Source: Escherichia coli
Lineage (GTDB): Bacteria > Pseudomonadota > Gammaproteobacteria > Enterobacterales > Enterobacteriaceae
DNA: 64,000 nt
Assembly (NCBI RefSeq): GCF_003334405.1
Contig: NZ_QOWM01000003.1
Strand: one strand, 5' to 3'
Position numbers and translations under genes: made by a program. Below, piece after piece: positions 42,617 through 43,255 of this stretch. The notes below the pieces were generated by a model. That model was not told the origin of the DNA. It was given only the letters and a program-made list of their open reading frames with translations, and made no database searches. Positions within the stretch are counted from its first letter, which is position 1. Every line of letters starts with the position of its first letter.

Positions 42617-42793
42617 GTGAAACAAAGCGAGTTCAGACGTTGGCTCGAATCTCAGGGCGTCGATGTAGCGAATGGCAGCAACCATTTGAAACTCAGGTTT
42701 CATGGGAGGCGCAGTGTCATGCCGCGTCACCCCTGCGATGAGATTAAAGAACCATTGCGTAAAGCAATCCTGAAACAACTCGGTTTGAGTTAA
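42617..42793 (+). CDS. hicA: HicA mRNA-interferase toxin (type II toxin-antitoxin)
   Basis: 58-codon ORF with GTG start 4 nt after gggagg; translation VKQSEFRRWLESQGVDVANGSNHLKLRFHGRRSVMPRHPCDEIKEPLRKAILKQLGLS; absent from ORF track (under 60 aa). Confidence 0.8.
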   Translation: MKQSEFRRWLESQGVDVANGSNHLKLRFHGRRSVMPRHPCDEIKEPLRKAILKQLGLS

Positions 42794-42817
42794 TCGCCAA
42801 TTAAAAAGGTTAATGAC

Positions 42818-43255
42818 ATGCGAGAGACAGTCGAAATTATGCGTTATCCCGTCACTCTTACACCCGCGCCGGAAGGCGGTTATATGGTTTCTTTTGTGGA
42901 TATCCCTGAAGCGTTGACCCAGGGCGAAACTGTCGCTGAAGCGATGGAAGCGGCAAAAGATGCTTTACTGACCGCATTTGATTTTTATTTTGAAGATAAC
43001 GAGCTTATCCCTTTACCTTCGCCATTAAATAGTCACGATCACTTTATTGAAGTACCTTTGAGCGTCGCCTCTAAGGTATTGCTGTTAAATGCTTTTTTAC
43101 AGTCAGAAATCACTCAGCAAGAGTTAGCCAGGCGAATTGGCAAACCTAAACAGGAGATTACTCGCCTATTTAACTTGCATCATGCGACAAAAATCGACGC
43201 CGTCCAGCTCGCGGCAAAGGCGCTTGGCAAAGAGTTATCGCTGGTGATGGTTTAA
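42818..43255 (+). CDS. hicB: HicB antitoxin (RNase-H-like fold plus DNA-binding domain)
   Basis: ORF immediately downstream of hicA; alternative start at ATG 42839. Confidence 0.85.
   Translation: MRETVEIMRYPVTLTPAPEGGYMVSFVDIPEALTQGETVAEAMEAAKDALLTAFDFYFEDNELIPLPSPLNSHDHFIEVPLSVASKVLLLNAFLQSEITQQELARRIGKPKQEITRLFNLHHATKIDAVQLAAKALGKELSLVMV

Follow-up and report, generated by a model that had tools for sequence, protein, structure and literature searches.

The closest described system is the chromosomal hicAB operon of Escherichia coli K-12. Ectopically expressed HicA was summarized as bacteriostatic and as an inhibitor of translation, inducing ribosome-independent cleavage of the ompA, dksA and rpoD mRNAs and of tmRNA (PMC11594946, PMC8138530). 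According to the same summaries, starvation for amino acids and carbon induces hicAB transcription, and this induction depends on Lon. His23 is named as the catalytic residue of HicA (PMC8138530, PMC11594946), and HicB is described there as fully folded and as covering this residue in a HicA2-HicB2 tetramer, which is held by the C-terminal helix-turn-helix (HTH) domains. Binding and neutralization of HicA by HicB were reported for the identical K-12 proteins (Jorgensen 2009, Manav 2019, as summarized in PMC11594946 and PMC8138530).

Two promoters have been described for this operon. The mRNA from P1 yields both proteins; P2 is repressed by HicB at the operator hicO and derepressed by excess HicA, and its transcript yields HicB only, as far as the accounts in PMC11594946, PMC8138530, PMC10865869, PMC6957337 and PMC11951105 go. 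P1 is summarized as carrying a CRP-S site (PMC11594946, PMC11951105, PMC6957337), and PMC10865869 places hicO, an inverted repeat, in the P2 region. Among the HicAB systems compared in the summary of PMC11594946, a two-promoter mechanism has been documented for E. coli alone. For the work of Jorgensen 2009, Turnbull and Gerdes 2017, Manav 2019 and Sinha 2009, the published mechanism was taken here from reviews and later papers. There is no mention of hicA in Sondberg 2019. The physiological role of hicAB is debated, with stress response, persistence, phage defence and selfish addiction as proposals.

The analyzed window comprises 64,000 nucleotides of an E. coli contig (NZ_QOWM01000003.1), and all coordinates refer to it unless stated otherwise. 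Positions 42617-43255 are the hicAB operon, with yncJ on one side and ydcR on the other. It is practically certain that this is the chromosomal hicAB locus (formerly yncN-ydcQ) of a K-12-type E. coli. In a pairwise comparison with E. coli K-12 MG1655 (1506000-1513000), a single mismatch was found over 7,001 nt counted from window position 39331. The MG1655 genes hicA (b4532, 1509286-1509462) and hicB (b1438, 1509508-1509924) correspond to 42617-42793 and 42839-43255, respectively, and the same coordinates of both genes were found in the RefSeq PGAP annotation of another strain. A 1,001-nt query spanning the locus (42400-43400) matched 5,417 of 5,426 complete E. coli genomes; several of these matches were 100% identical, with hicA, hicB and ydcR annotated beneath them. 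The upstream neighbours are ydcO, sutR, rlhA and yncJ, followed on the downstream side by ydcR and ydcS. An E-value scan of 42000-43600 against Rfam returned only sub-threshold chance matches. Nothing contradicts the identification as hicAB. The locus is not new, as its GTG start, its structure and its two-promoter regulation are all contained in curated annotation and literature, and the toxicity of hicA and its neutralization by hicB were already published for this exact sequence (Jorgensen et al. 2009, as summarized in PMC11594946). More than one member among others, this locus is the founding experimental case of the HicAB family. The coordinates of the features are given in Table 1.

Two observations concern the surroundings. 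The mismatch to MG1655 lies at 44128, inside ydcR, and leaves the operon itself identical; the source is a K-12-like or very close E. coli, yet not letter-identical to MG1655 at this position. For rlhA (ydcP; 40070-42073), the open reading frame listing extends the start to a GTG at 40070 (667 aa), and the gene has a length of 1,962 nt (653 aa) in RefSeq. The gene rlhA is also among the atGTG-starting genes, with the weak Shine-Dalgarno (SD) sequence UAAG and a DtoStart of 7 (Kohl et al. 2022, PMC9841429).

Table 1. Features of the hicAB locus with their window coordinates.
Feature	Position	Strand	Description and basis
Candidate hicO (HicB operator)	42567..42584	+	Perfect 7-bp inverted repeat GTAAACA-ctaa-TGTTTAC; found by repeat script, assignment inferred
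Candidate P2 -10	42590..42598	+	Extended -10-like TGaTATACT; hexamer scan, inferred
hicA Shine-Dalgarno	42607..42612	+	GGGAGG, 4 nt (CGAT) ahead of GTG; seen in sequence
ATG-TGA minimal start-stop	42615..42620	+	AUGUGA context, one-base overlap with GTG; seen in sequence
hicA CDS	42617..42793	+	58 aa, GTG start, TAA 42791-42793; HicA mRNA interferase toxin; PDB 6HPB_A identity, Pfam, RefSeq/MG1655
Upstream alternative hicB start	42806..42820	+	AAGGT, 7 nt, ATG 42818 (145 aa); good SD, seen in sequence
hicB CDS as curated	42839..43255	+	138 aa; HicB antitoxin/repressor; PDB 6HPB_B/6HPC identity, Pfam, RefSeq/MG1655
GGCAAACCTAAA inside hicB	43139..43150	+	Unoccupied; prophage junction core in some other E. 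coli; junction alignment

The deduced HicA of 58 amino acids, which falls within the 50-100 aa expected of a toxin with the dsRBD-like HicA domain, is identical over its full length to chain A of PDB 6HPB (100%). The Pfam family HicA_toxin (PF07927 / COG1724) was matched at residues 5-57 of 58 with an E-value of 3.7e-07, and the catalytic His23 is encoded by the CAT codon at 42683-42685. The adjacent hicB is co-oriented with hicA and encodes an N-terminal HicB domain and a C-terminal HTH DNA-binding domain. Its frame is 100% identical to chain B of 6HPB and 6HPC (138 aa, from the ATG at 42839) and to 6U0I_A (145 aa plus tag, from the ATG at 42818), with Pfam matches to HicB_lk_antitox (E-value 1.3e-07) and HTH_3 (E-value 2.8e-07), the latter region located at about 43100-43240. 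Given the Pfam E-values and the identity to PDB entries, both open reading frames are far beyond chance. NCBIfam gave no family match for HicA, HicB or YncJ, and PADLOC returned nothing for HicA and only weak HTH-region matches for HicB.

An earlier sequence-only reading of this DNA had proposed an intact type II toxin-antitoxin pair consisting of the mRNA interferase HicA and its antitoxin HicB. This holds in all parts: both frames are open up to their TAA codons (42791-42793 for hicA and 43253-43255 for hicB), the expected Pfam domains are present, and the proteins are those which were crystallized, whereas the activities themselves are known from the literature on identical proteins. The same reading had described hicA as a gene of 58 codons initiated by GTG at 42617, which lies four nucleotides behind GGGAGG and next to an ATG directly followed by TGA. 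All these details were recovered directly from the sequence, including the ATG at 42615-42617, which shares its G with the GTG at 42617-42619 and is directly followed by the TGA at 42618-42620. It was also correct that hicA is missing from the original open reading frame track, likely because the default length cut-off of the listing is 60 aa; at a minimum of 30 aa the gene is listed. A gene of less than 60 aa with a GTG start can hence be recovered by reading the raw sequence.

The GTG at 42617 is almost certainly the real start of hicA, for which three independent lines of evidence were found. The first is the reading frame together with the protein domain. An in-frame TGA at 42590, 27 nt upstream of the GTG, closes the frame, so that the GTG is the first possible start and the only one giving a complete HicA domain. 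A start at one of the next in-frame codons, TTG at 42686 or ATG at 42719, would cost the protein residues 1-23 or 1-34, His23 among them, and truncate the Pfam match. The second line is formed by curation and crystal structure, since the GTG is the annotated start in MG1655 (b4532) and in RefSeq and the crystallized HicA has the same 58 residues.

The third line is comparative. A scan of viral contigs (IMG/VR) with HicB gave 57 loci, most of them with hicA about 50 nt upstream, and 40 distinct operon 5′ architectures were compared. The plasmid collection contained few true relatives, and several of its 'plasmid' matches were chromosome-sized records. GTG was found to be the hicA start, aligned to residue 1, in 39 of the 40 distinct related sequences, the HicA proteins of which are 35-86% identical to that of E. 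coli; when HicA was clustered, GTG was present in 11 of 12 clusters at 90% identity and in 4 of 5 at 80%, although all these counts derive from phylogenetically related sequences and are not independent events. Third-codon positions near the GTG vary freely among the HicA relatives. In the related operons GGAGG is located 3-5 nt ahead of the GTG, and most of them carry an in-frame stop 18-63 nt upstream of it. In the plasmid homologue of Arsenophonus nasoniae, hicA is annotated with a GTG after GGGGG-N4.

The assumption that hicA uses the TTG at 42686 or the ATG at 42719 instead, or that it is an untranslated relic and the GTG frame is not a real gene, is extremely improbable. GTG is a weak start codon, the abundance of HicA is very low with 0.021 ppm (Kohl et al. 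2022, PMC9841429), other strains of E. coli have lost hicA or carry it as a pseudogene, and an SD-like GGGAGG (42703-42708) precedes the ATG at 42719, all of which would suit this explanation. Both shorter forms would nevertheless lack the catalytic His23 with a cut Pfam domain, the protein sequence of residues 1-34 is kept even in relatives of 35-86% identity, and the 58-aa HicA was crystallized with HicB and reported to be toxic. An internal start at 42719 was rejected, since L065 and L067, two variants from E. coli, have lost the internal SD. The internal motif, a copy of GGGAGGCG within hicA (42703-42721) located 10 nt ahead of the in-frame ATG of Met35, is probably incidental as judged from these variants.

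Another explanation concerns the overlapping ATG. Most initiation could take place at the AUG at 42615 and be stopped at once by the UGA, so that HicA would be produced by reinitiation at the overlapping GUG and AUGUGA would act as a dedicated throttle or switch. Reporters and narQ showed competition at AUGUGA and GUGUGA sites as well as reinitiation that depends on RF2 (Kohl et al. 2022, PMC9841429), and AUGUGA is invariant in the five E. coli variants aligned. However, hicA is listed in Table 2 of that study among 18 atGTG-starting E. coli genes with the SD GGAGG, a DtoStart of 12 and the predicted ambiguity 'no', which implies that the SD should guide ribosomes to the GUG. Furthermore, the AUGUGA context is absent from the relative L021 and from most other relatives. 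Because almost all relatives lack the AUG overlap and keep only GGAGG-N4-GTG, it is not a conserved family feature; by these alignments AUGUGA is an E. coli-specific context. A dedicated AUGUGA switch is therefore considered unlikely, and direct initiation at the GUG is the preferred reading.

For hicB, two ATG codons in the same frame have to be considered, 24 nt (42818) and 45 nt (42839) past the hicA stop. Both spacings had been given exactly by the sequence-only reading; its preference for the ATG at 42818 differs from the start curated in MG1655 and RefSeq, the ATG at 42839, which had been treated as the alternative. An initiation at 42818 (145 aa) instead of, or besides, 42839 (138 aa) is possible, though on balance doubtful. 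The ATG at 42818 has a proper SD (AAGGT at 42806-42810, followed by 7 nt), compared to only GAGAGA about 11 nt upstream of the ATG at 42839. The arrangement AAGGTTAAT-N3-ATG is invariant in the five E. coli variants and in L021 (72% identical), which also keep the frame of the 7-codon extension, and a 2-nt indel in L065 is located upstream of the ATG at 42818, outside of the extension. In addition, the structure 6U0I was built from the 145-aa HicB.

In favour of the shorter form, 6HPB was determined with the 138-aa HicB, and the HicB_lk_antitox match begins only at residue 10 of the 145-aa form. In every one of the 40 distinct operon relatives, ATG-(Arg/Lys/Leu)-Tyr occupies the position of the ATG at 42839, and 36 of them have no in-frame start codon upstream of it; 35 of these 36 share the N-terminus Met-Arg-Tyr-Pro. 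Where an extension is present it is poorly conserved in sequence (MRETVEI, MRDFEKI, MFTDTT). The start at 42839 is thus better supported than that of the 145-aa form.

Next, the region upstream of hicA was analyzed for regulatory elements. Within the 140 nt ahead of hicA, a single inverted repeat has arms of 6 bp or longer, namely that at 42567-42584. It was found by a custom script, as a repeat search with a minimum length of 8 misses the 7-bp arms. The related operons contain an inverted repeat of this kind, equally far from the GTG, and the placement of hicO at 42567-42584 is a candidate assignment. The hexamer scan identified TATACT (5 of 6 matches) preceded by TG, and the first three bases of this element are the in-frame TGA at 42590. 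The operator-like repeat overlaps the -35 and spacer region belonging to this extended -10, which may represent that of P2. Transcripts from it would begin at about 42605, which is one or two bases ahead of the SD. This predicted start would fit a P2 transcript unable to translate hicA.

The P2 candidate emerged only in a looser hexamer scan; a general promoter and terminator scan of 42300-43400 detected neither a promoter ahead of hicA nor a terminator. When 42396-42620 was scanned with the CRP-S consensus (TGCGA-N6-TCGCA type), there was no site with up to two mismatches and only one poor match with three mismatches, at 42398. The published activator site of P1 was not located by scanning with either the CRP-S or the CRP-N consensus. 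Sites of the CRP-S type are asymmetric, one of their half-sites being weak.

Taken together with the published work, the following mechanism is proposed. HicA would be translated from the GUG at 42617, which would be positioned by the strong SD GGGAGG 4 nt upstream. The 58-aa toxin, with a fold like that of a double-stranded-RNA-binding domain and His23 as the key catalytic residue, would cut mRNAs and tmRNA without the ribosome, leading to growth arrest. The N-terminal partial RNase-H-like domain of HicB would cover the active site of HicA in the HicA2-HicB2 heterotetramer, and the C-terminal HTH dimer would bind the operator hicO. According to the published work, the operon uses two promoters because the toxin gene comes first: the upstream P1, dependent on CRP-Sxy via the CRP-S site, provides the mRNA for both proteins, and P2, which adjoins the hicA start, is repressed by HicB and derepressed by excess HicA, giving a short transcript for HicB only. 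This arrangement would restore the antitoxin excess when the toxin rises.

The weak GUG codon may help to keep HicA low. A more far-reaching proposal, based on the sequence comparison and regarded as rather improbable, is that GGAGG-N4-GUG is a selected throttle (reinforced by AUG-UGA in E. coli) which would hold the first-encoded toxin below the antitoxin, and that HicB would be made as two isoforms of 145 and 138 aa from two conserved ATG codons, the longer one having the better SD. If true, the conserved weak GUG start would be part of how toxin-first toxin-antitoxin operons keep the toxin below the antitoxin.

The locus in the window is an intact, unoccupied allele. The hicA sequence was found in 4,254 of the 5,426 complete E. 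coli genomes, compared to 5,417 genomes with the flanks; about 1,160 of these 5,417 keep the flanks without the hicA sequence. One common allele has a 22-bp deletion which corresponds to 42734-42755 and lies between two TGCG repeats, by which hicA is frameshifted and hicB stays intact (L002, L004, L012 and hits H36-H40). It is annotated as 'mRNA interferase, frameshifted' and was present in about one in five hicA matches (~5 of 25), a rough estimate from evenly spaced rows. The pattern of this allele is a loss of the toxin with retention of the antitoxin. In a second allele (L003, hit H13), a deletion of ~445 bp from 42573 to about 43017 fuses the operator-like repeat, at its left arm, with codon ~60 of hicB and takes out P2, hicA and the 5′ part of hicB.

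In some E. coli, prophage or foreign DNA interrupts hicB in its 3′ part, around residues ~100-104 of the protein (L009-L020, L061-L063, L004). Among the IMG/VR prophage contigs, L009-L020 break off at residue 104 of HicB and L061-L063 set in at residues 100-102, and the 12-bp core GGCAAACCTAAA is present at both prophage junctions. A terminase small subunit gene was observed near one end of the inserted element, and no integrase gene was found in the DNA examined. In the swine isolate K_EC180 (L005), IS91-family transposase genes replace or interrupt hicAB downstream of yncJ, starting from the position equivalent to ~42447.

Compared to the E. coli K-12 HicAB system (b4532/b1438; PDB 6HPB, 6HPC, 6U0I), the operon DNA, both proteins, the flanks, the gene order and the GTG start are all the same, and no difference was found inside the operon. 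The HTH-type HicAB systems of prophages and plasmids (IMG/VR L008-L064; Arsenophonus nasoniae plasmid paIh2) share the toxin-first order, the hicA start GGAGG-N3-5-GTG, the hicB start ATG-Arg-Tyr-Pro and a repeat of the GTAAnCA-N4-TGnTTAC type ~50 nt upstream of the GTG. They differ in having two repeats, which bracket a TTGACA -35, whereas a single repeat is present in L021 and at the chromosomal locus of E. coli. In addition, a GC-rich hairpin (ccagccctccggggctgg) directly follows the hicA stop in these relatives and is missing from the E. coli chromosomal locus and L021, which, unlike most relatives, have the extra upstream in-frame hicB ATG.

The hairpin between hicA and hicB is conserved in L007, L008, L018 and L022-L064. 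It recalls the 'noncanonical intrinsic terminator' of the unrelated IncI2 HicAB subfamily (PMC11878559), in which the intergenic terminator raises the HicA:HicB ratio (PMC11878559).

The HicAB systems of the ribbon-helix-helix type (Yersinia pestis HicA3B3, Burkholderia pseudomallei HicAB, Streptococcus pneumoniae HicBA and the IncI2 plasmid HicA(T)B) resemble the reported E. coli system in three respects: the toxin is an RNase of dsRBD-like fold that relies on a catalytic His, it is masked by the N-terminal domain of HicB, and HicB represses its own operon. Their antitoxins bind via a ribbon-helix-helix domain and form hexamers or octamers, in contrast to the E. coli HicB, which has an HTH domain and forms an A2B2 tetramer.
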